From the NCBI GenBank assembly GCA_047638675.1, contig JBLIML010000004.1:1360-65359 (forward strand): a stretch of DNA of 64,000 bases, written 5' to 3'. Shown here one piece after another: positions 14,529 to 31,462 of this stretch (positions within the stretch are counted from its first letter, which is position 1; each line of letters opens with the position of its first letter). The position numbers were made by a program, and so were the translations under genes. The notes beneath the pieces were generated by a model. It saw nothing but the letters and a program-made list of their open reading frames with translations. It was not told the DNA's origin and made no database searches. The stretch comes from Planctomycetota bacterium. Its GTDB lineage: Bacteria > Pseudomonadota > Gammaproteobacteria > Eutrophobiales > Eutrophobiaceae.

Positions 14529-15371
14529 CTAGGATCCGGCTCTAACAATAAGTTGCTCGTCTGTTTTTCGTTGTTTTTCCTGTCGTATCAATAGCCAACC
14601 TGCAAGCGCGACGCCAATGCTTACGATAGTAATAATGAGAGTGGCCAGGGCGTTTATGTCCGGTGTTACGCCGAGTCGGATCTTGGAATAGATCCACATT
14701 GGTAGCGTACTGGCGCCCGGTCCGGAAACGAAGCTGGCAATAATAAGATCATCGAGAGACAGGGTGAACGCCAGTAGCCAGCCGGATAACATTGCGGGAA
14801 AGATCAAAGGTAAGGTAATGTCCAGCGTTACGCGAAACGGTCTGCCGCCCAGGTCCATCGCGGCTTCTTCCAGTGACTGATCCATCGAGATTAATCGTGA
14901 TTGGACAATGACAGCGACATAAGCCATTGAGAAAGTGATGTGTCCAATCATGATGGTGGTTGCGCCTCGTTCACCGGGCCAACCCGTTAAATCCTGCATA
15001 GTGACAAACAACAAAAGCAAAGATAGCCCTGTGATAACTTCCGGCATCGCCAACGGTGCTGCAATCATCCCGGTAAAAAGCAATCTGCCACGGAAACGGC
15101 CCATTCGAGTCAGCGCAAGGCCCGCCAGTGTCCCCATAAGGGTAGCAAAGGTAGCGCTAATAAGGGCGATACGAAGACTGAGTAAAGTCGCTTCGATTAT
15201 TTGTCTGTTTTCCAATAAAGCCAGGTACCAACGAAATGAAAAGCCGCCCCACACAGATACAATTCTTGAATCATTAAAGGAGTAAACCATTACCAGAATA
15301 ATGGGTACATAAAGGAAGGCATAACCAAAGCAAAGCACAGTGATCAAAAAGCTTGATCGCTTGCTATTCAT
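14529..15371 (-). CDS. Polyamine-type ABC transporter permease (PotI/PotC-like)
   Basis: Multi-TM permease. The likely start, ATG at 15371 (MNSKRSS...), overlaps the upstream stop as ATGA. The longer listed ORF (to 15473) would overlap the upstream gene by about 100 nt. Confidence 0.85.
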   Translation of the reverse strand: MNSKRSSFLITVLCFGYAFLYVPIILVMVYSFNDSRIVSVWGGFSFRWYLALLENRQIIEATLLSLRIALISATFATLMGTLAGLALTRMGRFRGRLLFTGMIAAPLAMPEVITGLSLLLLFVTMQDLTGWPGERGATTIMIGHITFSMAYVAVIVQSRLISMDQSLEEAAMDLGGRPFRVTLDITLPLIFPAMLSGWLLAFTLSLDDLIIASFVSGPGASTLPMWIYSKIRLGVTPDINALATLIITIVSIGVALAGWLLIRQEKQRKTDEQLIVRAGS

Positions 15372-16285
15372 GGTGCGTCCTGTGATTCCGGTGCCTGAAA
15401 GTGTTGAAAAAGCATCATTGGCAAGATCAGGATTAGCAAGAGAATAGTGGCAACGGCTGCTGACAATGGCCAATCACGATTACCGAAAAATTCATCGTAA
15501 AGTGTTCGACCAATCATCAGCGAATCCAGTCCGCCCAGTAAAGATGGAATAACAAATTCCCCCAGGGCGGGAATAAATACCAGCAAACTACCGGCGACGA
15601 TGCCGGGCAGGGAAAGTGGCAGCGTGATATCGCGAAAGATAACCAGCGGTTTCGCACCTAGATCAGCGGCGGCGTCATTCAAATCAAAATCCAGTTTTTC
15701 CAGATTAGCGAAAAGTGGCAGGATCATAAAAGGCAAATAAGAGTAAACAATACCCAGATAGACAGCGAAATCGGTATATAGCAGTTTCAGAGGTTGTTCG
15801 ATAAGTCCCAGTGCGATTAAGGAATTATTGATTAAACCGTGGGTGCTCAACATTCCCATCCAGGCATAGACTCTGAGTAAAAACGATGTCCAGAACGGCA
15901 GGATGATCAGGAACAGAAAAATATTGCGCCATACTGAATCTGCCCGAGCTATAGCGTAAGCCATTGGATATCCAATGAGTAAGCAAAGACAGGTCGATAT
16001 AAAGGCAATTTTTAGTGATTTGAAATAGCTTATCCAGTAAAGATCATCCTCCATCAGGAATCGATAGTTATCCAGAGTGAAATGAAAAGAGATGTTTGCG
16101 TTTTCCGAAAACTCAAGCAATGGTGTAAAAGGCGGGAGCGCCACTACAGGGTCAGAAAAACTGATCTTGAAAATAATGGCGAAAGGCATGAGGAAAAAAA
16201 TCAGAAGCCATAAATAGGGTGCCAAAATAACAAAACGTCGCCACAATATATCCAGCGTTCTTTGTTGAGACAAAGGGGCATTCAT
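15368..16285 (-). CDS. Polyamine-type ABC transporter permease (PotH/PotB-like)
   Basis: 305 aa, six hydrophobic spans, EAA-like loop (DLGAKPLVIFRDITLP). 4-nt overlap with the ATPase gene. Confidence 0.85.
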   Translation of the reverse strand: MNAPLSQQRTLDILWRRFVILAPYLWLLIFFLMPFAIIFKISFSDPVVALPPFTPLLEFSENANISFHFTLDNYRFLMEDDLYWISYFKSLKIAFISTCLCLLIGYPMAYAIARADSVWRNIFLFLIILPFWTSFLLRVYAWMGMLSTHGLINNSLIALGLIEQPLKLLYTDFAVYLGIVYSYLPFMILPLFANLEKLDFDLNDAAADLGAKPLVIFRDITLPLSLPGIVAGSLLVFIPALGEFVIPSLLGGLDSLMIGRTLYDEFFGNRDWPLSAAVATILLLILILPMMLFQHFQAPESQDAP

Positions 16286-17421
16286 TCGGTTAGCACGACG
16301 CTGCTTTGCGCATCCCAGGACAGGTAGACTTCTTCATCCCATTCAAGAACACGTTCAGCTGAGCGCACTCTGTTTTGTGCACTAACCTGAACAATTTTAC
16401 CCGAGGCTGTTTTAACCCTGTAAATTGACAAATTACCGTGATAACCCAGATCCCAGACAACACCTTTTATAACGGACAAACCATTTCCCTGTGGTCGATC
16501 TTTATCTATAGTTATTTTTTCTGGTCTGACGGCAATAGTTAGTTCAGAACCCACTACTGTATCAATAGGATTCACGGCCAGTATTGTTGTCCCCGTTTCC
16601 TTACATTTCATTTCCAGTTCTCTGTCATTGAGTTTACTTACAACACCTTCAAACAAGTTTATGCTGCCAAAAAAATCGGCGACATAGCGATTGACAGGAT
16701 ATTCGTAGATTTGCTTTGGTGTGCCAGTTTGTATCACTTTGCCACTATGCATAACCGCTATACGTGAGGAGAGAATCATGGCTTCATCTTGATCATGGGT
16801 CACAACGATAAAAGTTATGCCGATTTGATCCTGAATATTCATCAATTCAAATTGAGTATGCTCACGCAGTTTTTTATCAAGTGCGGCAAGCGGTTCATCC
16901 AGCAATAAAACTTTTGGTTTTTTAATAAGCGCTCTGGCCAGCGCAACGCGTTGTCGCTGTCCCCCAGATAATTGATGAGGCTTACGTTTTGCAAACTCCG
17001 TCATTTGTACCAGTTCGAGCATTTCCTCTACACGGTTTTGTATTTCCTGTTTTCTTACGCCTTCTTTTTTTAGACCATAGGCAACATTTTTCTCAACCGA
17101 CATATGTGGAAATACTGCATAAGACTGAAACATCATGTTCACCGGGCGCTCGTATGGCGGCACGGTAGTCATGTCAACTCCGTCAATAAGGATCCTGCCA
17201 GCGGCAGGTGTTTCGAATCCGGCAAGCATGCGCAATAATGTGGTCTTACCGCAGCCGGATCCACCGAGAATAGCAAAAAATTCATTCTTATAAATATTGA
17301 GATTTACATTATCCACCGCCAGATAACCATCAAAGTCTTTTGAAATATTTTCAATCTGAATGAAGGGCGCTTCATCCGGAGCCTGCCAGACGGGTTTTAG
17401 TTGAGATGTTGCATCAATCAT
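16282..17421 (-). CDS. Polyamine-type ABC transporter ATPase (PotA/PotG-like)
   Basis: Walker A GGSGCGKTT, signature LSGGQRQRVALARAL, Walker B LLLDEP, C-terminal TOBE-like domain. Confidence 0.9.
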   Translation of the reverse strand: MIDATSQLKPVWQAPDEAPFIQIENISKDFDGYLAVDNVNLNIYKNEFFAILGGSGCGKTTLLRMLAGFETPAAGRILIDGVDMTTVPPYERPVNMMFQSYAVFPHMSVEKNVAYGLKKEGVRKQEIQNRVEEMLELVQMTEFAKRKPHQLSGGQRQRVALARALIKKPKVLLLDEPLAALDKKLREHTQFELMNIQDQIGITFIVVTHDQDEAMILSSRIAVMHSGKVIQTGTPKQIYEYPVNRYVADFFGSINLFEGVVSKLNDRELEMKCKETGTTILAVNPIDTVVGSELTIAVRPEKITIDKDRPQGNGLSVIKGVVWDLGYHGNLSIYRVKTASGKIVQVSAQNRVRSAERVLEWDEEVYLSWDAQSSVVLTE

Positions 17422-17440
17422 TTTGAATGGTTAGCTATCT

Positions 17441-18529
17441 TCAAATTCCGGTTTTCATTCGCGTCCATGCCCTCGAACGTGGACGTTCCTTTTTGGGTGA
17501 GAAAACTACCACAGCTTGCAATCTTTTTCTCACGCTTGCATTGGGGTAAATCCCGGGATCGCTCGTGATCTCAATATCTACAAGCGGAGTAGCGGATTTA
17601 TTGCCGTTAGCATAACCGGTAAAATTGGAGATAGCTGCAATAACTTCCGGGCGTAACAAATAGTTTATAAGAAGGAGTGCATTACCTGGGTGTGGGGCAT
17701 CGGCCGGTATAACCAGTGTGTCGAACCAGTTATGCACACCCCTGGAGAACATGGCAAAACCCAGATTAATATCAATGTCAGCTTCTTTAGCCCGTCTTTT
17801 TGCGACGGAGTAATCACCCGACCAGCTCATGGCTGCACAAACTTCCTTATTCGGCATATCAATCAACATTTTTCCCGAACTGAAATATTTTATATAGGGG
17901 CGAATTGCCTTTACTACCTGCTCGGCCTCTTTCAAGTGTTGTGGTTCGATCGAGTTTGCGTGATGACCAAGATAATTCATTACCGAAGGTATCGTATCAA
18001 TCGAACCGTCCAGTAAACTGACGCCACAATCGCTTATGCGGGACAGAATTTTCGGATCGAAAAAAAAGTCAGCAGTCTCCAATGATACTTCGGGGATACG
18101 TTCCTTTAGCAAGTCAATGTTGAAGGCGACGCCGGTTGTTCCCCACATATAAGGTGCTGCATGTCGATTGTCCGGATCGAAGGCAGATAGCTTATTCAAA
18201 AGCTCGGGATCAAGGTGATGCCAGTTAGAGAGTTTGCTCCGGTCCAGTGTCTGATAAATACCTGCAGTAATTAGTCTTGCGGAAAATGATGCTGAATGGA
18301 GAACAAGATCATAGCCACTTTTACCTGCCAGCAATTTGGCATCTACAATGTCGGTCGTATCGTAAATATCGTAATTGACCTTGATACCGTATTCTTTCTC
18401 AAAATTGCTCAGGGTATCTGGTCCGATATAATCTGCCCAGTTGTAAAAATTAACAATTTTTTCTTCTCCTGCATACAAATTCTGTAGCAGAAAAAAAGTC
18501 GCCAGTAGAATAAATAGATTTCTAATCAT
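17441..18529 (-). CDS. Periplasmic substrate-binding protein, PotF/PotD family
   Basis: 362 aa. Signal peptide MIRNLFILLATFFLLQNLYA. PotF-like N-terminus (NFYNWADYIGPDTL..FEKEYGIKV). Confidence 0.85.
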   Translation of the reverse strand: MIRNLFILLATFFLLQNLYAGEEKIVNFYNWADYIGPDTLSNFEKEYGIKVNYDIYDTTDIVDAKLLAGKSGYDLVLHSASFSARLITAGIYQTLDRSKLSNWHHLDPELLNKLSAFDPDNRHAAPYMWGTTGVAFNIDLLKERIPEVSLETADFFFDPKILSRISDCGVSLLDGSIDTIPSVMNYLGHHANSIEPQHLKEAEQVVKAIRPYIKYFSSGKMLIDMPNKEVCAAMSWSGDYSVAKRRAKEADIDINLGFAMFSRGVHNWFDTLVIPADAPHPGNALLLINYLLRPEVIAAISNFTGYANGNKSATPLVDIEITSDPGIYPNASVRKRLQAVVVFSPKKERPRSRAWTRMKTGI

Positions 18530-18564: not shown

Positions 18565-19719
18565 CTACATATCTGCGAGACCGCGTTTTAGCAGGCCTTT
18601 CGCAATAATCATACGCTGTATTTCACTTGTGCCTTCCCAGATACGATCAACACGCAACTCTCTGAAATACCGTTCGGCCAGGTTTTCGCGCATATAGCCG
18701 CGACCACCGAATATTTGTACTGCGCGATCTGCCACTCGATTGGCCATCTCAGATGCATAGAGTTTTGCCATAGAACAACGCGCATGTAATTGTTTCAAGT
18801 CATCACCACGATCATGTGCCTGTGCTGCCTCAAAAGTCATGAGTCGAGCGGCCCAGAGTTCTGTGACGCTGTCTGCCAACATAAATTGAATGGCCTGTTT
18901 GCTTGCCAAAGGCTCACCCTGAATATCACGGTTTTTGGCGAATTCAGCCGCTTCCTCTATCAAACGTGCCGCCGCTCCACAACATCGGGCTGCTATCATC
19001 ATACGTTCGTGACGAAACCAGCTTCTCGAGTACTGCATGCCCTCTCCTTCGGCACCAATGCGCATCGCATCCGCTACGAAGACATCTGTGAAGCGATAAG
19101 TTGGGTGATGAGCGGCGTATGTATGACTGAATAAAGGGTTGGCGATAACTTCTACGCCCGCTGTATTAATATCAAGAAAGAAGAGCGCGTGTTCGCCATT
19201 TTCTAATTTAGCCTGTATAAAAAAATAGTCGGCAAGATTGGCACTGGTTACGTACCATTTTTCACCGTTGATGGTATAACCACCTTTACACTTCGTTGCC
19301 CTTGTATTTATCGTCTCGTTTGAACCTGCCTCCGCTTCAGTGATGGCGTAGCACTCTTTTCGAGAGCTATCTATGAGAGGCAATATATAATTTTCTATCT
19401 GCTGTTTGCTGCAGGCTTCAAACATCCACTGTTGCGCTTCGGAAAAACACCAGCATAAGGCATTGGTTACTTTTCCAAGTTGCTCCCAAACCGCAACTTG
19501 TTCCGTCATACCAAGTTCGAGACCGCCGAACTTTTTCGGCACATCCATTTTGCTAAAACCCAGTTCTATCGCAAGTAAGTTGTGTCGTTTACTTATCTTC
19601 TCTGGCAGCACGCCTCCGTTAAATTCGGCCTCAATTTCCCAGGGCTTTAACTCTTCTTCGGTAAACTTGAAAGCTTTCCCCTGCCATTCTCTGGCGTTAT
19701 CACTTAATACGAGATCCAT
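18565..19719 (-). CDS. Acyl-CoA dehydrogenase family protein
   Basis: ACAD C-terminal motifs (QIFGGRGYMRE, IWEGTSEIQR). The preferred start, ATG at 19719 (MDLVLSD), lies 13 nt after the tetR stop. The listed ORF start at 19791 would overlap tetR. Confidence 0.85.
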   Translation of the reverse strand: MDLVLSDNAREWQGKAFKFTEEELKPWEIEAEFNGGVLPEKISKRHNLLAIELGFSKMDVPKKFGGLELGMTEQVAVWEQLGKVTNALCWCFSEAQQWMFEACSKQQIENYILPLIDSSRKECYAITEAEAGSNETINTRATKCKGGYTINGEKWYVTSANLADYFFIQAKLENGEHALFFLDINTAGVEVIANPLFSHTYAAHHPTYRFTDVFVADAMRIGAEGEGMQYSRSWFRHERMMIAARCCGAAARLIEEAAEFAKNRDIQGEPLASKQAIQFMLADSVTELWAARLMTFEAAQAHDRGDDLKQLHARCSMAKLYASEMANRVADRAVQIFGGRGYMRENLAERYFRELRVDRIWEGTSEIQRMIIAKGLLKRGLADM

Positions 19720-19732
19720 AAGGTCTAATCGC

Positions 19733-20374
19733 TTAGTTGTTACTGAAATGATTTGGAAACATAACGGCGAGATAATCAAAACATATCTCACAGGCTTCTT
19801 TACGATTTATCGCGTTTGGCGTCATTAAAAGATCCAGCCACAGACCGTTTACGAGGGCAGATAAACCAACCGCAAATGACTGTGATTTGATATGCTTGTA
19901 GGCAGGGTCTTTTTTCAATTCGTCACATAGTTTTGCCAGCACATTATTGGCTATTTCGTCACTTTTCGCACAAATCTGCAAGTAAGTTGGTCTGGACTTT
20001 GCTTCGCCCCAATAAGCGAACCATACGGCGAGTTTTTTCCTGTCACAAACTTTTGCACTAAAATCGAGGTTCACCAATGCGGCCATTTTTTCTTCCGCTG
20101 AATCGCCTGCTTTGTTTACTGCCCTGGTGCAAATGTCCTGATACTCATTCGAAAGATATAACAAAGTCTCTTCAAGCAATTTATCTTTGCTCTGGAAATG
20201 CAGATTCACGATACCCAGGCTCAAGCCAGCATCCTTTGTGACATCGGCCATCGTCGTTCCGGCAATACCACGATTAGCGATACAATTTATCGTGGACTTG
20301 ATGAGCTGCTCGCGTCGACGTTCTTTGCCCGTGACTCTGCTATTTGAGACTGCCTTTTGCGCTGCAATTACCAT
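19733..20374 (-). CDS. TetR/AcrR-family transcriptional regulator
   Basis: N-terminal HTH: CIANRGIAGTTMADVTKDAGLSLGIVNLHFQSKDKLLEETL. 213 aa. Confidence 0.9.
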   Translation of the reverse strand: MVIAAQKAVSNSRVTGKERRREQLIKSTINCIANRGIAGTTMADVTKDAGLSLGIVNLHFQSKDKLLEETLLYLSNEYQDICTRAVNKAGDSAEEKMAALVNLDFSAKVCDRKKLAVWFAYWGEAKSRPTYLQICAKSDEIANNVLAKLCDELKKDPAYKHIKSQSFAVGLSALVNGLWLDLLMTPNAINRKEACEICFDYLAVMFPNHFSNN

Positions 20375-20452: not shown

Positions 20453-20480
20453 AAATATGAATGAATAATCATTCATATTT
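20453..20480. promoter_or_regulatory. Perfect 12-4-12 palindrome AAATATGAATGA-ATAA-TCATTCATATTT, the probable TetR operator
   Basis: Read directly from the sequence. It lies 79 nt from the tetR start and 61 nt from the divergent aminotransferase start. Confidence 0.7.
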
Positions 20481-20540: not shown

Positions 20541-21884
20541 ATGAGTCGTGTACACACCAAATCAAATGCACAGTTTCAAAAGGCAATAAAACGCCTCCCG
20601 CTTGGCGTTTCTTCCAATTTTCGCTATTGGGGCGAAGACAAAACTATTTATGCGAAACGCGGTAAAGGTGGCCGCTTGTGGGATATCGATGATAACGAAT
20701 ACATCGATTACCGACTTGGCTATGGCCCGGCGATCCTTGGCTATGCAGATGAACGTGTCGATCAAGCCGCTCGTGATGGTATGAATGTTGGCGGCGTGTT
20801 TGCGCTCTCAACTGAACTCGAATATACGGTCGCCGATCGGATATGCAAAATGGTGTCATCAGCTGAGCTGGTGCGATTTTCCATATCCGGTACGGAGGCC
20901 GTCATGGCAGCATTACGGCTGGCTCGAGCTTACAGTGGCAAAGATGAATACGTATTGGTAGAGGGCGGTTATCACGGCGTCTTCAGTGAAGGTTTGTGGT
21001 ATTCAGAAGTTGAAGATTGGAAGGTGAGTGAGGGTGATCCGGAATTAATGCCATACAGTGAAGGGGTACCCGAACTTTACGGCCACCTTATTCATAGTGT
21101 CCCCTTAAACGATGCTAATCGTGTTGAGCGTTTGTTTCAGCGACATGCTGGCAAAATCGCGGCTTTTTTGATTGAACCCATGATGGGAAATTGTTGTTCC
21201 ATCACCGCTGAACAGCAATACCTGAAAGACGTACGTGAATTATGTACAAAGTATGATGTGATTTTGATCATCGATGAAGTTAAGACTGGTTTCCGGGTGG
21301 CTAAAGGTGGTGTTCAGGAGCTTTTAGGCGTTGATGCTGACCTCTCAACTTTTGCGAAATCAATGGCCAATGGATACCCGATTTCAGCCTTGGTGGGTCA
21401 GGAGGAGATCATGAGAATGATTGGTAACGGCGTTGTACATGGCGGCACCTATACGGCTCACTCTGTTTCAATAGCAGCGGCAAACAAGACACTTGAAATT
21501 CTCGATGAAACGCCTGCCCTGGCCAATATTGCTGAATATGGAATTAAACTTCGTGATGGCCTGGATAAAATATTGTCACGCCGAGGTATTCCGCATTGTT
21601 TTGTTGGCCATCCAGCTATGTCAGGTATGTTTTTTAGTGCAACGCCACCTAGTAACTACCGTGATTGGGTGAAAACCGATTACACATTTTACGACACGCT
21701 CGCGCCGAACTTGCATGATCTGGGTATTCTGGTTGAACCGGATTCTCGTGAACCCTGGTTCATGTGTGAAGCGCACGATGATAAGTGCTTTGACGAAACT
21801 ATTTTGAAATTTGAACAGGCAGTCGATATAACTATCGAGCAACTTCAACACACAACTAACAATCCGGTACAAAAAGTTAATTGA
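20541..21884 (+). CDS. Class III aminotransferase (glutamate-1-semialdehyde aminomutase-like)
   Basis: 447 aa. GYGPAILGY, SGTEAVMAALRLAR, IIDEVKTGFR, FAKSMANGYP. Confidence 0.85.
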   Translation: MSRVHTKSNAQFQKAIKRLPLGVSSNFRYWGEDKTIYAKRGKGGRLWDIDDNEYIDYRLGYGPAILGYADERVDQAARDGMNVGGVFALSTELEYTVADRICKMVSSAELVRFSISGTEAVMAALRLARAYSGKDEYVLVEGGYHGVFSEGLWYSEVEDWKVSEGDPELMPYSEGVPELYGHLIHSVPLNDANRVERLFQRHAGKIAAFLIEPMMGNCCSITAEQQYLKDVRELCTKYDVILIIDEVKTGFRVAKGGVQELLGVDADLSTFAKSMANGYPISALVGQEEIMRMIGNGVVHGGTYTAHSVSIAAANKTLEILDETPALANIAEYGIKLRDGLDKILSRRGIPHCFVGHPAMSGMFFSATPPSNYRDWVKTDYTFYDTLAPNLHDLGILVEPDSREPWFMCEAHDDKCFDETILKFEQAVDITIEQLQHTTNNPVQKVN

Positions 21885-23510: not shown

Positions 23511-25071
23511 GCAATACGACGCCACAATCATAGGGGCGGGTCACAACGGTCTGGTCTGTGCCACTTATCTCGCCAAAGCCGGGCAGAAGGTATTGATCCT
23601 GGAGGCAAATGAACAAGTTGGCGGTGCGGCAATCACACGTGAGTTCGCTAGTGGATTCTCTGTTTCTGCCTGTGCACATTTACTGCATTTGTTACACCCC
23701 CAGATAATTACTGATCTGTCCCTGCCGAGTCACGGTTTGAAAATGGCTGCGCAGGGTTTGAGTACTATCGCCTTGTCAGCAGACGGTGAGCATCTTACTC
23801 TTGATAGAGACACCATTAGTGGAGCGGGAATTTCAAATAGCGATCAAACTGCCTATCGCGATTTCCAAACCAGGCTCCGACGTTTTGCCAGGATTGTTCA
23901 AAAGACTTTCATGACGCGTCCGCCACGTCTTGTGCATAAAGACAGAAAAGATTTGATGACTCTTGCGAAGCTGGGTCTTAGCGTACGATTGTTGGGAAAA
24001 GAAGATATGCGCGAGCTGCTTCGCATTGGCGCAATAAATATCTATGACGTATTGCAGGAAGACTTTGAAAGTGAGCTGTTAAAAGGTGCACTTGGTTTTG
24101 ATGCGGTGCTGGGCAGTAATATGGGACCACGCTCTCCTAACTCGGTACTCTCCTATCTCTATCGTCTTACTGGACAACTTAATGGAAATGATACTGCAAT
24201 TTCAGTTCCAGCGGGTGGTATGGGCGCAGTTACAAAGGCATTGCGCAAGGCCGCTGAAGCTGCTGGTGTTGAAATTAGAACTGGCACACGAGTCAAACAG
24301 ATTATTCTGGATGTCGACAATGTTACCGGGGTAGAAACGACAGAAGGTGAAAAAATAAATTGCGGCCTGGTCGTTTCCAATGCAGATCCGAAGACAACCT
24401 TTTTAAAACTTATCGGTGCAAGAAACATTGAAACCGGCTTCGCTCGACGCGTTGATAATATACGTATGAAGGGCAAAGCGGCCAAACTACATTTGGCTTT
24501 GGATGGCGTTCCCAGTTTTGAAGGACTGCCTGAAAAGCTGCTTGGTAATCGTCTTGTGATCGCACCTACTCTGCAATACATTGAGCAGGCTTTTGATCAT
24601 TCAAAATATGGCGAATATTCAAATGAGCCTGCCATTGAAATCAGCATTCCATCGATTCATGATGATAGCCTCGCGCCGCCAAGCAGGCATGTGCTCTCTG
24701 CCGTGGTTCAATACGCACCTTATGAATTACGTACTGGCTGGGATTCGCATCGCGATACTTTCAAACAAGTGGTGATAGACAAAATCGCAGAGTATGCCCC
24801 CGGAATAAAAGATCAAATAACTGCGTCAGAGTTATTGGTGCCAGCAGACATAGAAAGGGAATTTAATATTCATGGCGGGCATTGGCATCATGGTGAATAC
24901 ACGCTTGATCAATTTATGATGCTGCGCCCAGTACCCGGTGCTGCACAATATTCCACACCAATAAATGGTTTGTACCTTTGTGGGGCGGGTTCGCATCCCG
25001 GTGGCGGTGTAATGGGTCTCGCCGGACGTAATGCCTCAACAGAAATAATAAATCGGGAGCACAAGTCATGA
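23503..25071 (+). CDS. NAD(P)/FAD-dependent oxidoreductase, phytoene-desaturase-like (COG1233/PYROXD2-like), copy 2
   Basis: 522 aa paralogue of the preceding gene (YDATIIGAGHNGLVCATYLAKAG, GAGSHPGGGVMG). The start overlaps the upstream stop by 8 nt. Confidence 0.8.
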   Translation: MSKQYDATIIGAGHNGLVCATYLAKAGQKVLILEANEQVGGAAITREFASGFSVSACAHLLHLLHPQIITDLSLPSHGLKMAAQGLSTIALSADGEHLTLDRDTISGAGISNSDQTAYRDFQTRLRRFARIVQKTFMTRPPRLVHKDRKDLMTLAKLGLSVRLLGKEDMRELLRIGAINIYDVLQEDFESELLKGALGFDAVLGSNMGPRSPNSVLSYLYRLTGQLNGNDTAISVPAGGMGAVTKALRKAAEAAGVEIRTGTRVKQIILDVDNVTGVETTEGEKINCGLVVSNADPKTTFLKLIGARNIETGFARRVDNIRMKGKAAKLHLALDGVPSFEGLPEKLLGNRLVIAPTLQYIEQAFDHSKYGEYSNEPAIEISIPSIHDDSLAPPSRHVLSAVVQYAPYELRTGWDSHRDTFKQVVIDKIAEYAPGIKDQITASELLVPADIEREFNIHGGHWHHGEYTLDQFMMLRPVPGAAQYSTPINGLYLCGAGSHPGGGVMGLAGRNASTEIINREHKS

Positions 25072-26255
25072 GTGTAAGAGAAGCTGATAAACGTGTATTA
25101 ACTACGCCATTTTATTCACGCACTTCTGCGCTATGTGAAACCAATCTTTGGTCGCCCTGGAAAGCCTATACCACGGTCGATTGCTATTCCGTGCTGTTCG
25201 AAGAATATTTTGCAATTCGTAATGCGACTGCCGTGTTTGATCTTACGCCAATGACCAAGTATCGAATAAGCGGTATTGATGGGCTCGCCTATCTTGATAA
25301 GTTAATGACTCGCAAGATGAGTAAACTCACGCCAGGACGCGTTATGTACGGGGCGTGGTGTAACGACTTGGGTCATGTTCTGGATGATGGAACCGTTTTT
25401 CACCTGGAGGAAAATGTATGGCGTTTATGTTCGCAGGAACGTCATATGGATTGGTTGCAAGCAACGGCGATGGGCTTCGAAGTTGAAATTGAAGATGAGA
25501 CTGACGATGTTGTTGGTCTGGCAGTACAGGGACCCACTTCCTGCCAAACATTAAAATCGATGGGTCTGCAGGGTGTTGAAAATATTAAACCATTCCAGAT
25601 GAGGTCCTTCCCTTTCGCAAACTCAGAATTGCTGGTGTCACGAACTGGATTTACCGGTGATCTTGGCTATGAACTCTGGGTCACGCCCGATCTTGCCGAG
25701 AAACTATGGGACGCACTGTTTGAAGCAGGCAAATCTCATGGCATTCTTCCCATCGGTTCCCACGCTCTTGATATAGCACGTATTGAAGCCGGCTTTATTC
25801 AGGCTGATGTCGATTTCGTACCCGCATTGAACGTCGTGCGTGCAGGTAGAGGACGATCGCCCTTTGAGTTGGGTCTGGACTGGCTGGTTCATTTCGACAA
25901 ACCAATATTTAATGGACGAAAGGCCCTGTTAAAAGAGAAAGAAACGGGTTCTCGATATCGTTTTGTGCGTCTTGACGTTGAAGGTAACAAGCCTGCAAAC
26001 GACTCGTTTGTTTACAATGGTAAAAAGGAAATTGTTGGGCATGTGACTTCAGCAACGTGGTCGCCCAGCGCAAAAAAGAATATTGCATTGGCTTCAGTGG
26101 AAATGCCCTGGGGTCGCCCGGAAGATGAATTATATGCGGAGATCTATTACAACCGCGAATTACAGTGGAATCGTCTCATGGCGCGTTGCCATGTCGTGGA
26201 AGGGGCGTTTTTTGATCCACCTCGACGACGTGAAACACCTCCCCTGGATTATTGA
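25068..26255 (+). CDS. GcvT-family (aminomethyltransferase fold, folate-binding) protein
   Basis: 395 aa. RTGFTGDLGYELW, ARIEAGF, SATWSP. ATGA overlap with the upstream gene. No gcvH or gcvP nearby. Confidence 0.8.
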   Translation: MSVREADKRVLTTPFYSRTSALCETNLWSPWKAYTTVDCYSVLFEEYFAIRNATAVFDLTPMTKYRISGIDGLAYLDKLMTRKMSKLTPGRVMYGAWCNDLGHVLDDGTVFHLEENVWRLCSQERHMDWLQATAMGFEVEIEDETDDVVGLAVQGPTSCQTLKSMGLQGVENIKPFQMRSFPFANSELLVSRTGFTGDLGYELWVTPDLAEKLWDALFEAGKSHGILPIGSHALDIARIEAGFIQADVDFVPALNVVRAGRGRSPFELGLDWLVHFDKPIFNGRKALLKEKETGSRYRFVRLDVEGNKPANDSFVYNGKKEIVGHVTSATWSPSAKKNIALASVEMPWGRPEDELYAEIYYNRELQWNRLMARCHVVEGAFFDPPRRRETPPLDY

Positions 26256-26359: not shown

Positions 26360-28495
26360 ATGCCTCATAAGCTAGATTCATTGTTGCGACCCCGGTCTAT
26401 TGCGGTAGTGGGTGCAAGCCGACGTGATGGCGTTGTTGGCAATATGATTCTGAAGAATCTATTAAGAGGAGAGTATCCAGGTAATCTCTATGCAGTTAAC
26501 CCCGGCTATAACGAAGTAGAGGGGCTTGCCTGTTTCCCATCACTTTCTGAATTACCTGAAGCGGTTGAGCACGTAATTTTTGCCGTCAATGATGAGCGCA
26601 TTGAAAATGCACTTGATTCGGCAATAGCGCATGGAATTAAAGCTGGCACAATTTTCTCATCACTAATTCTCGCAAATGATACCTCACCTTTATTGAAAGA
26701 GAGGATATATAAAAAAGCGAAGGAGGCAAATTTGTTACTCTGCGGTGCCAATGGAATGGGTTACTACAACTTTACCGAGAGTATTTGGGCCTGCGGATTT
26801 GACACCCGCTGTCACCGTAAACAGGGTAATGTGACGTTAATCAGCCAGTCTGGTGCGGGTATGTCGGGAATTCTGGATGTAGATGAACGACTCGATTTTA
26901 ATTTTGCCGTATCTACCGGTCAGGAATTGATGGTGTCAGCGGAAGACTATCTTGATTACGCTTTGGATCAAAAGGAGACGCGTGTCATCGGCTTCTTTAT
27001 GGAAACCAGCCGTAGCCCTGATAAGCTCATTGCGGCTTTTGAAAAAGCCAATGAACGAAAAATCCCGATTGTCGTGATTAAAGTTGGACGCACGGCGCTT
27101 GCTTCAAAACTTGCTGTGTCTCATTCCGGTGCGATGGCAGGCGCTGACAATGTTTATAACGCGATTTTTGACCGTTATGGCGTGCAGCGAGTTGAGGACA
27201 TGGAAGAGCTTGCGACTACACTGATAATGTTTGCTCAACCACATTCAGTCGGCCCCGGAGGATTTGTTAGCCTTCATGATTCGGGCGGGGAGCGTCAATT
27301 GATTATTGACCTGGCTGATAAGGCGGATGTCACACTTGCCGATTTATCTGCCCAAACAATTCGCAAACTGGAAGGCTTGCTCGATCCTGGATTACCCGCG
27401 GTAAACCCGCTGGATGCATGGAGTGTAGGTGGCCCCGATTATGATAAAACAATGGCAGAATGTTTTGCTAGTTTGTTGTGTGATCCAGGCGCCGCTCTTG
27501 GCGCCGTTGTACATGACCGTGCGCCCTTCGGTCATATCTATCCGGAATACATTGGCTATTTACGCAGTGCGCACAAGGCCTCAGGTAAACCGGTTTTCCT
27601 GGTGTCGAACAGACAAGGCACAGGTGAGGATCCGATGGTGCTTGAATCCACCCGTGAGGGATTTCCAGTGCTTGACGGCGTTAGCGCTTTTCTGAGTGGC
27701 GTAAAGTGTCTGATGGCCTATCGGGACTTTCTTGAGCGGCCTCAGATGATTTTGCCCACTTTATCAAATGATACGATTAGCAGCTGGCGGACCAGATTTA
27801 GGGAAGGTCAGACAATTACAGAAAATGTGGCCAGTAGTTTTCTGGCAGCGTGCGGCCTGCCGATGAACAAATCAGTGTTGATTGAAACAGAGGCTGAGCT
27901 AGTAAACTCAATAGCAGAAGTCAGCTATCCTCTTGCCTTGAAAACAGCCAATCCAGAGATAAAGCATAAAACCGAACAAAAAGGGGTCATTCTTGATATC
28001 CAGAATGAGAAAGAATTATTGGAAGTCTATTCCGACATGTCATCGCGACTAGGTGGCAAAGTTCTTCTCTCGCCGATGATAGATTCGCCAGGCATTGAAA
28101 TGATACTGGGTATCGCCAGTGATGAGCAGTTTGGACCCATGATTGTAATGGGCTTTGGTGGGGTGTATACGGAAGTATTGGAGGACATAGTTATTCTCTT
28201 TCCTCCTTTTGATGCACAGTATGCTTTCCACAATCTTCGATGCTTGAGGATGAGGAAAATACTGGACGAAGTAAGAGGCAAGCCAGCATGGGATTTATCT
28301 GCATATTGTGAAGCCGCTGCTATTCTTTCCGTTGTCGCCCTTATGTTTAAAGATGAAATTATTGAACTGGATATTAACCCGGTGAAGGTTATGGAACATG
28401 GTTGCCTCGGATTAGATGCGCTTGTCGTCACAACAATCAAAGAGACAACTCGTCTTGCTGAATTACGGATGGAATCGAAAAACAGTTATGCTTGA
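26360..28495 (+). CDS. ADP-forming acyl-CoA synthetase (acetate-CoA ligase family; CoA-binding, ligase-CoA and ATP-grasp domains fused)
   Basis: 711 aa. PRSIAVVGASRR CoA-binding N-terminus, central SHSGAMAG phosphohistidine-loop-like segment, C-terminal ATP-grasp. Confidence 0.8.
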   Translation: MPHKLDSLLRPRSIAVVGASRRDGVVGNMILKNLLRGEYPGNLYAVNPGYNEVEGLACFPSLSELPEAVEHVIFAVNDERIENALDSAIAHGIKAGTIFSSLILANDTSPLLKERIYKKAKEANLLLCGANGMGYYNFTESIWACGFDTRCHRKQGNVTLISQSGAGMSGILDVDERLDFNFAVSTGQELMVSAEDYLDYALDQKETRVIGFFMETSRSPDKLIAAFEKANERKIPIVVIKVGRTALASKLAVSHSGAMAGADNVYNAIFDRYGVQRVEDMEELATTLIMFAQPHSVGPGGFVSLHDSGGERQLIIDLADKADVTLADLSAQTIRKLEGLLDPGLPAVNPLDAWSVGGPDYDKTMAECFASLLCDPGAALGAVVHDRAPFGHIYPEYIGYLRSAHKASGKPVFLVSNRQGTGEDPMVLESTREGFPVLDGVSAFLSGVKCLMAYRDFLERPQMILPTLSNDTISSWRTRFREGQTITENVASSFLAACGLPMNKSVLIETEAELVNSIAEVSYPLALKTANPEIKHKTEQKGVILDIQNEKELLEVYSDMSSRLGGKVLLSPMIDSPGIEMILGIASDEQFGPMIVMGFGGVYTEVLEDIVILFPPFDAQYAFHNLRCLRMRKILDEVRGKPAWDLSAYCEAAAILSVVALMFKDEIIELDINPVKVMEHGCLGLDALVVTTIKETTRLAELRMESKNSYA

Positions 28496-29321
28496 TAAGA
28501 ATAAATATCAGACAATAATTTACAAAACCGATGGGCCTGTCGCCACCTTAACACTTAATCGACCGGACAAGCTCAATGCTATCAACGCTCAGATGGTTAA
28601 GGAGTTAAACGAAGCGCTTGATGATGCCGAAAGCTGTGATCAAGTGCGCGCTATTATATTGTCTGGAGCTGGACGTGCGTTTTCGGCCGGATTTGATCTG
28701 ACTGCAGGCAACGACGGAAGCGCAGAATCTGATCTTGAGTTCTGGCGTCAGGAATTAAAACGCGATTTCGATATAATCATGCGTTTCTGGGATTGTCCGA
28801 AACCGACAATCGCCGCTGTTCATGGTTATTGTCTCGGCAGTTCGATGGAGATGGCCGTTGCCTGCGATATCACTATCTCATCAGAGGATTGCCTGTTTGG
28901 CGCACCGGAAGTTAAATTCGGTAGTGGCATCGTTGCATTGATTTTGCCATGGGTTATAGGCGTTAAAGCAGCGAAGGAACTTTTACTTACTGGCGATGAT
29001 AAAGTGACGGCAGTACGTGCTTTGTCACTAGGACTGATAAACCGGATCGTCGAGAATGTAGAACTTGAAGAGAGTGGCCTGTCGATTGCTCGCTCCATAG
29101 CAAATAACGACCGATTGGCGGTAAAGCTTACCAAGCAGGCAATAAACAGTAGTTGCGAAGCAATGGGAATGCGAGAGTCATTGTTGCAGGCGCTCGACGC
29201 GGACCTGATAATTGAAACCACGGAAACGCCAGAGTCAAAAGAATTTAACCAGATACTTAAACAACAAGGCGCCAGGGCAGCATTTGACTGGCGAAGCAAA
29301 AAAGTGAATAACGAAGAATAA
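28488..29321 (+). CDS. Enoyl-CoA hydratase/isomerase (crotonase) family protein
   Basis: LNRPDKLNA and GAGRAFSAGFDL oxyanion-hole motifs. The preferred start, ATG at 28488, overlaps the upstream stop by 8 nt. Confidence 0.85.
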   Translation: MLDKNKYQTIIYKTDGPVATLTLNRPDKLNAINAQMVKELNEALDDAESCDQVRAIILSGAGRAFSAGFDLTAGNDGSAESDLEFWRQELKRDFDIIMRFWDCPKPTIAAVHGYCLGSSMEMAVACDITISSEDCLFGAPEVKFGSGIVALILPWVIGVKAAKELLLTGDDKVTAVRALSLGLINRIVENVELEESGLSIARSIANNDRLAVKLTKQAINSSCEAMGMRESLLQALDADLIIETTETPESKEFNQILKQQGARAAFDWRSKKVNNEE

Positions 29322-29326
29322 TTATT

Positions 29327-30718
29327 ATGAAAATAGCAGATAGAGCAAGTGTCGAAGAATTGCAGGCTTTCCTGAAGAAAAATCCCGGGACAAAAATGAT
29401 TGAAGCTCTTATGGTCGACGTTAACGGCATGCTACGAGGCAAACGCATTGGCGTTAACGAATTTACGACTCTGTATGAAGAGGGTCTAAAGGCCTGTGGC
29501 TCAACGCCCTTTGTTGATAGTCGTGGTGAAATTGCCCTTGAAAATGGGCTTGGTACAAGGGATGGCGATCCCGACGTTATGAATTATGCCGTTAAAGATA
29601 CGCTGGTATCTGTTCCATGGCTCGATTCTCCCGTTGCTCAGGTGCTTACCTCACTGGCAAATTTTGATGGCTCACCTTATTATTCGGATCCCAGACACGT
29701 ATTACAAGGCACCTGCGAGAAACTTGTCGAATCGGGCTTTCATCCAGTCGTGGCAACTGAGTTTGAATTTTACTTACTCAAGGCAGGTAAGGGTATCGTA
29801 CCTGGACCGGAACTGGGTACTATTCCCGGCACCACACTGGAACAACAGGGTCTGCAATTCTCAAGCATGGAGGACTTGTGGGAAAGTGATCCTGTATTGA
29901 TGGATATACTGGCGTGCTGTGAAACGCAGGCTATACCTGCCACAACCGTCCTGTCCGAGTTCGCACCAGGTCAATTTGAAATCAATTTACAACACGTTAA
30001 GGATCCTTTGACTGCTTGCGATCATGGTGCAATGCTAAAACGTGCAATCAAAGGGACCACATTTAAACATGGACTTGGTGCCTCCTTCATGGCAAAACCT
30101 TTTGCTGAGTTTTCCGGCAGTGGCTTGCACATCCATGTGAGTTTATATGATGAGGATGGTAATAATGTCTTTGCAGATGACAACTCAAAGACAGTGCCGG
30201 CTTTATCCACGACAATTCGACATGCCATTGGCGGGCTACAACGCAGCATGGCAGATGCCATGGCCATATTTGCACCCAATGCTAATTCCTATCGTCGACT
30301 TCAGCCTAACTCCTTTGTACCCTTGTCGCCCCACTGGGGATATAACCATCGCGGCGTTGCCCTTCGCATACCTGTCAGCGATAGTCGTAATATGCGTATC
30401 GAACACAGGGTAGCGGGTGCAGACGCCAATCCCTACCTGGTCATGGCCGCTCTTTTGGCTGGAATTCATTATGGTATTTCTAATAAGTGTGAGCCAACGG
30501 AGATGATTGCTGAAGGGACACTGATTGAAAAGCAGGAGGTTACACTTCCTATTCGTTGGGAAGCGGCACTGCAGAAATTCAAAGATAGTGAAATTTTACC
30601 AATGTATCTGGGTGAAGAGTTTTGTCATGTTTTTGAAATTGCAAGACGCAGTGAAAGTGATCGCTTCCATGCACAGATTAGTAATCTTGATTACGAATGG
30701 TATTTACGTTCTGTTTGA
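29327..30718 (+). CDS. Glutamine synthetase-family gamma-glutamyl-amine synthetase (second paralogue)
   Basis: 463 aa GS catalytic domain (NANSYRRLQP, IEHRVAGADANPYL). Confidence 0.8.
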   Translation: MKIADRASVEELQAFLKKNPGTKMIEALMVDVNGMLRGKRIGVNEFTTLYEEGLKACGSTPFVDSRGEIALENGLGTRDGDPDVMNYAVKDTLVSVPWLDSPVAQVLTSLANFDGSPYYSDPRHVLQGTCEKLVESGFHPVVATEFEFYLLKAGKGIVPGPELGTIPGTTLEQQGLQFSSMEDLWESDPVLMDILACCETQAIPATTVLSEFAPGQFEINLQHVKDPLTACDHGAMLKRAIKGTTFKHGLGASFMAKPFAEFSGSGLHIHVSLYDEDGNNVFADDNSKTVPALSTTIRHAIGGLQRSMADAMAIFAPNANSYRRLQPNSFVPLSPHWGYNHRGVALRIPVSDSRNMRIEHRVAGADANPYLVMAALLAGIHYGISNKCEPTEMIAEGTLIEKQEVTLPIRWEAALQKFKDSEILPMYLGEEFCHVFEIARRSESDRFHAQISNLDYEWYLRSV

Positions 30719-30796
30719 TTCTTGTGCGCGGACAGTTGGTTCAATTTGAACCATGCTGATCAATTTTAATAACTGAATCACTACTGTCTTTTTCTA

Positions 30797-31462
30797 ATGT
30801 CAAATCCAGGCTATATAGCCATCAAGGAATTTTGCGTCAATTCACCGAAGACGGATCCGAAAGGAATATTTCTCATGGCACATGGGGCCGGCAAGGGAAT
30901 GGCAAGTCCTTTTCTGGAGGCGATCGCCAATGGTGTTGTCGACGCAGGCGTCAGAGTCGTCCGGTTTCATTTCCCGTATATGGAAGACATGTTGCGGACT
31001 GGGATACAAAAAAAACCGAATGGCGGCAGACTTTTGCGGCAGACTTTTGCTGAATTGATTGAACATTGCGTAGAACACGAAAAAATGTCCCGCAACAAAA
31101 TAATAATTGGCGGCAAATCCATGGGCGCCAGGGTTGCATCCATGATTGCCGATGAACAAAAAGTCGCTGGCGTTATTTGTCTAAGCTATCCCTTTCATCC
31201 TCCGAAGAAACCTGAGCGAATACGCATAGATCATCTTCTTAATATCCAGACGCCTACGCTAATATGTCAGGGAGATCGCAATCCGAATGGCAAGCGGAAA
31301 TCGCTTGAAGAGTTAAGGCTATCTAAATCGATTCAGTTCCATTGGCTGGAAGATGGTGACAATAACTTCAAGCCGCGTAAAAAATCTGGCCGAACTCTGG
31401 ATGACAATATGACTGAGGCGATTATAAGTTGTAACGCGTTTATCAAAGGCTTATTAGAATAA
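30797..31462 (+). CDS. Alpha/beta hydrolase (dienelactone-hydrolase/KANL3-like)
   Basis: 221 aa. Nucleophile elbow GGKSMGARV. Typical alpha/beta length and order. Confidence 0.65.
   Translation: MSNPGYIAIKEFCVNSPKTDPKGIFLMAHGAGKGMASPFLEAIANGVVDAGVRVVRFHFPYMEDMLRTGIQKKPNGGRLLRQTFAELIEHCVEHEKMSRNKIIIGGKSMGARVASMIADEQKVAGVICLSYPFHPPKKPERIRIDHLLNIQTPTLICQGDRNPNGKRKSLEELRLSKSIQFHWLEDGDNNFKPRKKSGRTLDDNMTEAIISCNAFIKGLLE

Follow-up and report, generated by a model that had tools for sequence, protein, structure and literature searches.

Glycine betaine and proline betaine demethylation by the Gbc/Stc2-Dgc/StcD-SoxBDAG systems proceeds in three tiers and includes a Rieske N-demethylase, a BetI-type regulator, and flavin-dependent demethylation with capture of the one-carbon (C1) unit on a GcvT-type protein. 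Flavin oxidation of an N-methyl group to an iminium, with tetrahydrofolate capture on a GcvT-type site, is also the chemistry of DMGDH/SARDH, heterotetrameric sarcosine oxidase, and LSD1. In dimethylsulfoniopropionate (DMSP) demethylation (DmdA-DmdB-DmdC-DmdD/AcuH), a GcvT-family C1 step is accompanied by CoA activation, acyl-CoA dehydrogenase (ACAD) desaturation, and crotonase hydration at C3. A triad of CoA ligase, ACAD, and crotonase also handles ammonium-bearing acids in the Cai (CaiABCD) and S. meliloti BcoAB-C-D pathways, and polyamines are catabolized by the E. coli puu and P. aeruginosa pauA-D/spuC genes. This report concerns a divergent gene cluster (divergon) of about 17 kb that shares parts with each of these systems. 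It lies at 14529-31462 of a 64,000-nucleotide stretch, called the window throughout, that covers positions 1,360 to 65,359 of contig JBLIML010000004.1 (GenBank assembly GCA_047638675.1), deposited as a Planctomycetota bacterium and placed by GTDB in the gammaproteobacterial family Eutrophobiaceae.

The cluster is one for amine catabolism under repressor control, in which known families are combined in a way not described before, possibly with a new type of demethylase; full-text literature searches returned no description of the cluster or of a CrtI-family/GcvT demethylase. Judged from sequence, the substrate is most likely a polyamine-like N-methylated compound whose methyl groups would pass to folate and whose chain would be trimmed as a three-carbon (C3) CoA ester. 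A first-pass annotation, made by a model from the DNA letters, had listed 14 genes. Open reading frame (ORF) listing, Pfam, and NCBIfam place all 14 where it had put them, in the families it had named; for the two flavoproteins, labelled PYROXD2-like at first pass, what is shown is membership of the CrtI/flavin amine oxidase superfamily (CrtI/CrtO family):

14529-15371, minus strand: PotI-like ATP-binding cassette (ABC) permease (Pfam BPD_transp_1)
15368-16285, minus strand: PotH-like ABC permease (Pfam BPD_transp_1), kept in 28 related loci
16282-17421, minus strand: PotG-like ABC ATPase with TOBE domain (Pfam ABC_tran, TOBE_2)
17441-18529, minus strand: periplasmic binding protein with PotF/PotD-hybrid pocket (346 bits to E. 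coli PotF structures in the PDB)
18565-19719, minus strand: ACAD of generic short/medium-chain type (Pfam ACAD N, M, and C domains)
19733-20374, minus strand: BetI-like TetR-family repressor (Pfam TetR_N, TetR_C_6)
20541-21884, plus strand: class III aminotransferase (AT3) of the GSA-aminomutase/GntE-like subfamily (NCBIfam and PDB matches)
21894-23510, plus strand: flavoprotein FAD1 of the CrtI/amine oxidase superfamily (Pfam, NCBIfam, PDB search)
23503-25071, plus strand: flavoprotein FAD2, a FAD1 paralog (Pfam Amino_oxidase over the full length, 76 bits)
25068-26255, plus strand: GcvT-like protein of the folate-dependent aminomethyltransferase family (Pfam GCV_T 187 bits, GCV_T_C 42 bits)
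26360-28495, plus strand: fused NDP(ADP)-forming acyl-CoA synthetase (ACS; Pfam CoA_binding_2, Succ_CoA_lig, ATP-grasp_5)
28488-29321, plus strand: crotonase-family enoyl-CoA hydratase (ECH; Pfam ECH_1, 155 bits)
29327-30718, plus strand: glutamine synthetase (GS)-like gamma-glutamyl-amine synthetase (Pfam Gln-synt_C, 304 bits)
30797-31462, plus strand: Abhydrolase_11 protein (Pfam)

Neighbouring genes overlap by ATGA or by 8 nt or lie 5-35 nt apart, and a single 104-nt gap precedes the synthetase gene. Reading of the DNA bears out this packing, including the 8-nt overlap of the crotonase start (ATG 28488, inside a longer mechanical ORF) with the synthetase stop that had been noticed at first pass. 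It also places the ACAD start at ATG 19719, 13 nt past the tetR stop (the mechanical ORF is over-extended), and the start of the second permease at ATG 15371, in an ATGA overlap with the upstream stop, rather than at the head of a longer mechanical ORF. The FAD2 start overlaps the FAD1 stop by 8 nt, and the GcvT-like start overlaps the FAD2 stop by 4 nt. Base composition is even over the region (GC 0.43-0.47), so there is no sign of a recent foreign origin.

Conservation of the cluster was assessed by scanning species-representative genomes with an alignment of orthologs of the GcvT-like protein. At least 590 stretches were found, and the window proteins were mapped onto 83 related loci (single loci are cited by L numbers). 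The best 80 are all from Gammaproteobacteria, and their carriers include Halieaceae, Porticoccaceae/SAR92, Steroidobacteraceae, Woeseiaceae, Cellvibrionales, and unclassified metagenome-assembled genomes (MAGs); the carrier MAGs come from marine, sediment, lake, and soil samples. The exact layout (permeases-ATPase-binding protein-ACAD-TetR <> AT3-FAD1-FAD2-GcvT-ACS-ECH-GS) recurs in about twenty loci, with protein identities going down to 50-60%. In 41 loci, the full-flank subset, the flanks reach at least 9.5 kb upstream and at least 8 kb downstream. FAD1 is present in all 41 and FAD2 in 39, followed by the GS-like gene (29), AT3 (26), TetR (25), ACAD (22), the synthetase and the binding protein (21 each), a Rieske gene (19), the crotonase (16), and an extra aldehyde dehydrogenase (15); CoA genes occur in 25 of the 41. 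Given this recurring layout and these counts, the arrangement is far beyond chance, and the divergon is a unit both real and conserved. The FAD1-FAD2-GcvT trio makes up its invariant core, and the remaining genes are frequent modules. Usually the trio comes with a PotF/PotD-hybrid ABC importer, an omega-aminotransferase, and a GbcA/Stc2-like Rieske N-demethylase. Genes for the CoA ligase, ACAD, crotonase, and GS-like protein are frequent too, as accessory parts. The gene-neighbourhood search that had been proposed at first pass thus finds the divergent layout in many Gammaproteobacteria. The earlier view of the 17 kb as one unit stands for conserved, co-regulated arms and fails for an indivisible pathway, the core being the trio and the CoA and GS-like genes being accessory.

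One usual partner of the trio stands apart from the divergon in the window:

38448-39653, plus strand: GbcA/Stc2-like Rieske monooxygenase, a displaced cluster member (NCBIfam GbcA and PDB matches)

This protein scores 328 bits against the NCBIfam GbcA model (cut-off 670), and its PDB matches 3n0q, 3vca (the S. meliloti stachydrine demethylase Stc2), and the demethylase 4qup score about 231-236 bits. In relatives, the Rieske gene nearly always lies directly after the GS-like gene, or after the GcvT gene where the GS-like gene is missing. In the closest relative, L004 (GcvT-like protein 87% identical), the GS-like gene is followed by the Rieske gene (71% identical), a GATase1 gene, and, further on, MmsA. 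Seen against this order, the 7.7 kb block that separates the two genes in the window (30797-38447) and is missing from L004 looks like an insertion. It encodes the Abhydrolase_11 protein, a TonB-dependent receptor, a 315-aa protein with no Pfam or NCBIfam match, a SAM hydroxide adenosyltransferase (DUF62 family), and a TPR-sulfotransferase. By its gene order in relatives, the Rieske gene is a member of the cluster. The alpha/beta hydrolase, which had been entertained as a possible member, must be dropped, as it co-occurs in none of the 83 loci and falls inside the block. The next gene downstream of the Rieske gene faces it in convergent orientation and encodes an Orn/DAP/Arg decarboxylase-fold protein (39678-40913, minus strand; LysA model 118 bits, cut-off 298), which is not at this position in L004.

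Set beside the systems described above, the cluster overlaps with each in part. With Gbc-Dgc-Sox it shares a Rieske N-demethylase of the same subfamily, a BetI-type regulator, and, as proposed here, flavin demethylation with GcvT-type C1 capture. Alphaproteobacterial versions of the trio (FAD1 63-65% identical) are carried on plasmids of Shinella zoogloeoides (L084) and Parasedimentitalea marina (L085), where the neighbours are TetR, a Rieske gene, a SpuC-like aminotransferase, a PotGHI-type ABC system, and a 678-aa NADH:flavin (OYE/FadH-family) oxidoreductase, and where the GS-like gene is missing. The composition of these versions mirrors the three-tier demethylation of glycine betaine; DgcA belongs to the same broad NADH:flavin oxidoreductase family. 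In contrast to Gbc-Dgc-Sox, the cluster flavoproteins are CrtI-family paralogs rather than DAO-family proteins, the GcvT module stands as a protein of its own, the importer is of polyamine type, and an omega-aminotransferase is integral. Neither DgcAB nor DAO-type sarcosine oxidase subunits are encoded in the divergon, and no reductase gene adjoins the Rieske gene to make a GbcA-GbcB pair. The proposed iminium and folate chemistry would be that of DMGDH/SARDH, sarcosine oxidase, and LSD1, whereas the cluster would use two CrtI-type subunits in a predicted three-protein assembly.

With DMSP demethylation the cluster would have in common the logic by which a heteroatom substituent is taken off C3 of a propionyl unit (CoA activation, ACAD desaturation, and crotonase hydration), together with a GcvT-family C1 step. 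However, no protein reaches the Dmd models, the ACAD and crotonase match generic models only, the heteroatom would be nitrogen instead of sulfur, and gene order and partners differ. The Cai and Bco pathways offer the same CoA triad for an ammonium-bearing acid, but the cluster lacks a carnitine dehydrogenase and BKACE, and the Cai models are not reached. The window also holds counterparts of Puu/Pau genes (GS-like, DAO-type oxidase, SpuC-like, PotF-type importer, PuuR-like, and PuuD-like). Yet in an operon upstream of the divergon the places of PuuC and PuuD are taken by an AFOR-family protein and an amidase, and nothing in Puu/Pau corresponds to the folate-linked trio, the Rieske enzyme, or the CoA module. 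PuuB, PuuC, and PuuD are not encoded in the divergon, the PuuD-like gene (212 bits, cut-off 266) being 17 kb away. For the N-methylglutamate pathway (GmaS, MgsABC, MgdABCD), no GltB-like or Sox-like subunit genes were found among the ORFs of the region. The expectation that no named pathway would fit is therefore upheld for DmdABCD, Puu/Pau, N-methylglutamate, Gbc-Dgc-Sox, and Cai/Bco alike. The homarine hom operon was also considered and set aside, its enzyme families being unrelated (PMC13236597).

The regulator belongs to the TetR/BetI repressors by its TetR_N helix-turn-helix, its BetI-type C-terminal domain, its divergence from the target operon, and an adjoining palindrome; at 113.4 bits against the NCBIfam BetI model PRK00767 (cut-off 118), it is BetI-like rather than BetI. 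The palindrome is a perfect inverted repeat (12+12 nt) at 20453-20480 in the divergent promoter region, AAATATGAATGA-ataa-TCATTCATATTT. Its core, TGAATGA-N4-TCATTCA, is kept in 30 of 32 orthologous TetR<>AT3/FAD1 gaps. With up to 2 mismatches allowed, the core has 41 matches in 1.33 Mb of related loci, 36 of them exactly between TetR and AT3/FAD1 and 4 more upstream of AT3. The conserved palindrome is a phylogenetic footprint of the predicted TetR operator. Its conservation across lineages, almost only within the divergent gap, supports the earlier proposal that the two arms are co-regulated. A related palindrome, CTGAATATTCATTCAG, is found in the gap of L084.

Exactly two zero-mismatch copies of the palindrome are present in the 64 kb window, the one just described and a second, ATGAATGAGGGTTCATTCAT, at 13703-13722. 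The second copy lies between the start of a GS-like operon (13411) and an AspH-like gene (13913):

12077-13411, minus strand: second GS-like gamma-glutamyl-amine synthetase, first gene of the operon (Pfam Gln-synt_C 328 bits)
10686-12071, minus strand: class III omega-aminotransferase of the PRK07480 subfamily (NCBIfam PRK07480 785 bits, cut-off 510)
8842-10671, minus strand: AFOR-family (aldehyde:ferredoxin oxidoreductase; tungsto-/molybdopterin) protein (Pfam AFOR_N 262 bits, AFOR_C 422 bits)
7415-8824, minus strand: amidase-signature amidase (Pfam Amidase 306 bits; NCBIfam amidase models below their cut-offs)
6114-7400, minus strand: DAO-family FAD oxidoreductase in a PuuB/PauB-like position, last gene of the operon (Pfam DAO 230 bits)
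13913-14479, plus strand: small Asp/Asn beta-hydroxylase-family (AspH-like) protein, 188 aa (Pfam Asp_Arg_Hydrox 47.6 bits)

The second GS-like protein stays below every NCBIfam equivalog cut-off. Aminotransferases of the PRK07480 subfamily are usually annotated as SpuC-like, and homologs occur in the Porticoccaceae and alphaproteobacterial versions of the cluster. The amidase is a candidate gamma-glutamyl-amide hydrolase. The AFOR protein is found in 0 of the 83 related loci and occupies the place of the relatives' NAD-dependent aldehyde dehydrogenase. The gene right behind the trio or behind the Rieske gene encodes a DAO homolog in L012, L020, L030, L049, L071, L076, and L079-L081, and homologs of the DAO, SpuC-like aminotransferase, AspH-like, and agmatinase genes join the trio directly in L020, L030, and Porticoccaceae. 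The second operator copy probably adds the upstream Puu-like operon to the predicted regulon. Taken together with the trio-linked homologs elsewhere, it makes it probable that the regulon of this genome spans about 6.1 to 30.7 kb and takes in the Rieske gene as well. The unit is thus larger than first described, having lost the hydrolase and gained the Rieske gene and the operator-linked operon. Homologs of the AspH-like protein (58-62% identity), which has no NCBIfam match, stand beside FAD1 or ACAD in L020, L030, L041, L050, and L057.

The binding protein of the importer scores 356 bits against the NCBIfam PotF model (cut-off 636), and its best PDB match, 7oyx, is a PotF variant with the substitutions S38T, F88Y, A182D, F276W, and L348Q. 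These substitutions, F276W, F88Y, and A182D among them, are the residues of spermidine-type PotD, from PotF/PotD grafting work. Ten of the 14 PotF pocket residues are kept in the window protein; S38A, A182G, E185D, and F276W differ, as does the neighbouring V248Y. Among 29 cluster-linked orthologs aligned to PotF, W37, D39, Y40, W244, D247, D278, and Y314 are invariant. The extra aromatics V248Y and F276W are also invariant in these orthologs, and S38 is usually replaced by A or P. The kept acidic and aromatic PotF contacts, combined with PotD-like residues, argue for a di- or tri-cationic polyamine as the ligand and against a carboxylate-bearing betaine. Residue 182 is D or E (PotD-like) in 14 of 14 CoA-gene loci of Steroidobacteraceae and Porticoccaceae, A (PotF-like) in all 6 loci without CoA genes, and G or S in the rest, including the window. 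Since this residue tracks the CoA genes, the CoA module would be paired with a longer, spermidine-like ligand. Among the substrates that had been suggested at first pass, methylated polyamines therefore appear to fit best, and the betaine types are disfavoured by the predicted pocket. No Rfam match to a riboswitch, or other RNA clue to the ligand, was found anywhere in the window.

The GcvT-like protein has the GCV_T folate-binding domain and the C-terminal barrel of its family, and its invariant columns include DDG and TGxxGxxGYE motifs, which are presumed to be folate contacts by analogy to GcvT. Its best NCBIfam match is the C-terminal half of trimethylamine N-oxide demethylase (249 bits), and its PDB matches are GcvT (163 bits), Tdm (159), DMGDH (100), and DmdA (94); it reaches just 143 of the 1164 bits that the SoxA model requires. 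FAD1 and FAD2, 36% identical to each other, have N-terminal dinucleotide-binding motifs and Pfam Amino_oxidase matches. The top 120 homologs of FAD1 are 74-93% identical and 537-558 aa long, mostly 538, a constraint much tighter than in FAD2 or the GcvT-like protein that suggests a catalytic subunit with several partners. In a Foldseek search, the AlphaFold (AF2) model of FAD1 (pLDDT 75.5, pTM 0.82) matches carotenoid desaturases (CrtD, CrtI) best (4rep, TM 0.71), followed by monoamine oxidases, putrescine oxidase, nicotine oxidoreductase (NicA2), and cyclohexylamine oxidase (TM 0.55-0.60). The modelled fold would thus allow amine oxidation, and the structure search does not separate desaturase from amine oxidase. 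A demethylase-like role for the trio may be argued, by analogy, from translational coupling, the constant folate protein, the recurring Rieske gene, and the BetI-like regulator. The demethylase-like module of the first-pass annotation is accordingly retained as a predicted one; it adjoins a GbcA/Stc2-like Rieske gene in relatives, as well as the 678-aa oxidoreductase in Alphaproteobacteria.

The aminotransferase and the CoA enzymes are less specific in their matches. AT3 scores 457 bits against the NCBIfam GntE model (cut-off 525) and 341 bits against the HemL subfamily (cut-off 398), and GSA aminomutases in the PDB reach about 238 bits. The ACAD reaches no equivalog model, and its best PDB matches are generic ACADs. 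The synthetase is far below the cut-offs of the NCBIfam models for ADP-forming acetate-, 3-hydroxypropionate-, and 4-hydroxybutyrate-CoA ligases. The crotonase matches the uncharacterised structure 4k29 (270 bits) and then the 3-hydroxypropionyl-CoA dehydratase 5zai (141 bits). Overall, PDB sequence searches with the ACAD, crotonase, aminotransferase, GS-like protein, and FAD1 gave generic or uncharacterised relatives only. For the first GS-like protein (29327-30718), the type III GS model TIGR03105 (209 bits, cut-off 470) comes first among the NCBIfam matches; the gamma-glutamylputrescine synthetase model (cut-off 650) gives 201 and 177 bits for the two GS-like genes. A glutaryl-CoA dehydrogenase, which would indicate a C5 dicarboxylate route, was rejected for the ACAD: none is among its 35 best PDB matches, and just the non-decarboxylating Acd appears (111 bits, cut-off 470).

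The weak best matches of the CoA enzymes, far below cut-off, are all C3 enzymes (AcrC acryloyl-CoA reductase, 3-hydroxypropionate-CoA ligase, and 3-hydroxypropionyl-CoA dehydratase), a leaning that counts solely as a hint. The strongest clue to chain length comes from L004, where a bona fide AcuI acrylyl-CoA reductase (13433-14428; 531 bits, cut-off 440) is encoded between the synthetase stop and the crotonase start. Near the cluster in the window are AptA beta-alanine:pyruvate aminotransferase (686 bits) and MmsA (691 bits), a CoA-acylating malonate/methylmalonate-semialdehyde dehydrogenase whose gene also adjoins the cluster in L004 and L005. The short acyl-CoA end of the pathway that had been proposed at first pass thus gains support and is probably C3, as read from these genes; an aminopropyl group would be expected to yield just such a C3 acyl-CoA from its amine terminus. 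A PuuC/BADH-like aldehyde dehydrogenase is encoded in 26 related loci, mostly between the synthetase and the crotonase. It scores 541 bits against the PuuC model (cut-off 850) and nearly as high against betaine-aldehyde dehydrogenase models. In the window, the AFOR protein of the operator-linked operon is its likely substitute.

These observations are best joined by a reading to which we give slightly less than an even chance: the cluster is a BetI-like TetR-repressed catabolic regulon for an imported N-methylated polyamine-type cation, in this version probably one with aminopropyl (C3) units. The catalytic assignments, the order of steps, and the substrate are inferred from the observed gene content, conservation, operator footprint, pocket signature, and protein families. 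The PotF/PotD-hybrid ABC system would import the cation, and the GSA/GntE-like omega-transaminase would convert a terminal primary amine to an aldehyde. The aldehyde would be oxidized to an acid (an N-substituted beta-alanine) by the PuuC/BADH-like dehydrogenase in relatives and likely by the AFOR-family protein here, and the ADP-forming synthetase would convert the acid to a CoA thioester. ACAD and crotonase may then detach the C3 unit, either by desaturation and hydration of a beta-amino acyl-CoA (the logic of DmdC and DmdD) or by beta-elimination. The unit would leave as acryloyl-, 3-hydroxy-, or 3-oxopropionyl-CoA and free a shortened amine. Some N-methyl groups would be removed by the Rieske monooxygenase, and the FAD1/FAD2/GcvT-like complex would oxidize N-CH3 and hand the carbon to tetrahydrofolate. 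Gamma-glutamylation of a primary amine, whether intermediate or product, would fall to the GS-like enzyme. Binding of the repressor to the palindromes at 20453-20480 and 13703-13722 would place both arms and the upstream Puu-like operon under joint control.

A number of points weigh against this regulon. The nearest structural relatives of FAD1 are C-C desaturases, not amine oxidases, and the role of the trio is argued from analogy. ACAD, crotonase, and synthetase match no NCBIfam equivalog model. The arm in the window has no aldehyde dehydrogenase, AcuI is present in 1 of the 83 loci, and the divergon contains no gamma-glutamyl hydrolase. It also contains no Rieske reductase, the Rieske neighbours being the TPR-sulfotransferase and the decarboxylase. 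About 40% of the full-flank loci are without CoA genes, and the trio stands alone in 7 of 41. The binding protein of the alphaproteobacterial clusters is non-orthologous. Finally, the carriers include soil and freshwater lineages, and we know of no abundant N-methylated aminopropyl polyamine reported from such habitats.

In a bolder form, which we consider unlikely, the trio would be a new class of tetrahydrofolate-coupled N-demethylase, and the cluster would be the first catabolic pathway for N-methylated aminopropyl polyamines, such as the long-chain polyamines of diatom and sponge biosilica, degraded in repeated rounds of transamination, oxidation, CoA activation, C3 release, and demethylation. 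A CrtI-family folate-coupled demethylase would, if real, be new enzymology. It would also offer a concrete idea of the biochemistry of human PYROXD2, a flavoprotein that is still an orphan and whose locus is a quantitative trait locus for urinary trimethylamine and plasma dimethylamine signals (PMC3169529).

The trio and cluster are present in at least several hundred species-level genomes, where their members are annotated generically only, and the carriers include abundant coastal, sediment, freshwater, and soil Gammaproteobacteria as well as some Alphaproteobacteria. Assignment of the substrate would fill a gap in dissolved organic nitrogen cycling, in which methylated amines and polyamines are major currencies, and would identify a route for methyl carbon into the folate pool. 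The cluster is sharply delimited into a binding protein, a repressor with an evident predicted operator, and a three-gene enzyme, and some carriers are in culture, among them Shinella zoogloeoides ATCC 19623, Parasedimentitalea marina W43, Halieaceae WSDMB12, and SAR92 isolates.

Of the other explanations, the one that survives best, though quite unlikely, makes the substrate a quaternary ammonium carboxylate (of gamma-butyrobetaine, beta-alanine-betaine, or valerobetaine type) that is handled as a CoA ester by Bco/Cai logic, demethylated stepwise by the Rieske enzyme and the trio to an omega-amino acid, and deaminated by the aminotransferase. It accommodates the BetI-like regulator, the GbcA/Stc2-like Rieske protein, and a cluster aldehyde dehydrogenase that scores nearly as well on betaine-aldehyde dehydrogenase models as on PuuC, and S. 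meliloti BcoAB is a gamma-butyrobetaine:CoA ligase (PMC8364193). A paralogous cluster on the Shinella sumterensis plasmid NZ_CP132306.1 (L086, locus 5026-14164) also joins the relevant parts to carnitine-type genes, in the order LysR <> CaiD-like hydratase - ADP-forming synthetase - carnitine 3-dehydrogenase-like - CrtI-like flavoprotein - GcvT, with class II aldolase and BKACE genes close by. Its single CrtI-like flavoprotein is 38% identical to the window's; its synthetase, however, is just 30% identical, and neither a carnitine dehydrogenase nor BKACE is found in the window or in orthologous loci. The CaiA model gives 158 bits (cut-off 540), and CaiD is outside the top 25 crotonase matches. 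The importer pocket, with its three acidic residues and kept PotF polyamine contacts, would be unfavourable for a carboxylate. If the betaine arose inside the cell from a methylated diamine, this explanation would merge with the regulon for an N-methylated polyamine-type cation.

Catabolism of plain spermidine, norspermidine, or putrescine, to which little probability is given, would make the flavoprotein pair a polyamine oxidase or dehydrogenase and leave the GcvT-like protein an accessory or other role. The PotF/PotD-hybrid binding protein suits it, putrescine oxidase is among the structural neighbours of the FAD1 model, and the window is rich in polyamine genes (agmatinase, SpuC-like, two GS-like, DAO, PuuR-like, PuuD-like, AptA, and MmsA). 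Canonical plain-polyamine routes are already encoded separately in the window, which counts against it. An accessory role is also hard to reconcile with a GcvT-like gene that is invariant and translationally coupled to the flavoproteins, and both the recurrence of the trio with N-demethylating Rieske enzymes of GbcA/Stc2 type and the BetI-like regulator speak against a plain polyamine.

It is very unlikely that the cluster is a methylamine-oxidation module, in which the Rieske enzyme and the trio would demethylate trimethylamine, dimethylamine, or monomethylamine released from a precursor and the GS-like protein would be a gamma-glutamylmethylamide synthetase. In a variant, the trio may oxidize gamma-glutamylmethylamide directly to glutamine or glutamate and methylene-tetrahydrofolate, replacing the N-methylglutamate enzymes. 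Such a module would need no gamma-glutamyl hydrolase, in line with the divergon, and the top matches of the GS-like gene (type III GS) and of the GcvT-like protein (the C-terminal half of Tdm) lean the same way. The type III GS score is, however, less than half its cut-off, the GS-like gene is missing from 12 of the 41 full-flank loci and from the alphaproteobacterial clusters, and volatile methylamines need neither a PotF-type importer nor omega-transaminases. A variant of DMSP (or other sulfonium) demethylation of DmdABCD type is hardly credible: a GcvT-family protein, CoA ligase, ACAD, and crotonase are all in the cluster, and the AcuI of L004 is a DMSP/acrylate-associated enzyme, but the GcvT-like protein scores 137 bits on the DmdA model NF009133 (cut-off 410) and less on the DmdA structure 3tfh than on GcvT, the ligase is ADP-forming rather than AMP-forming, the importer is of polyamine type, DMSP demethylation has no use for the aminotransferase, GS-like, and Rieske genes, and the functional SAR92 dmd cluster (dmdA-acuH-dmdB-dmdC) differs and is without flavoproteins (PMC10746254).

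Further amine genes flank the cluster on both sides. To the left of the operator-linked operon lies a loosely associated neighbour:

5148-6095, plus strand: agmatinase-family ureohydrolase (NCBIfam PRK02190 452 bits, cut-off 302)

In Porticoccaceae/SAR92 the cluster ends with homologs of this protein (45-47% identity). To the right, a block at 41709-48364 encodes a GATase1-like protein, the CoA-acylating malonate/methylmalonate-semialdehyde dehydrogenase, AptA, a PuuR-like regulator, and the PuuD-like hydrolase. With the agmatinase gene included, most of the 5-48 kb region forms an island of amine catabolism.

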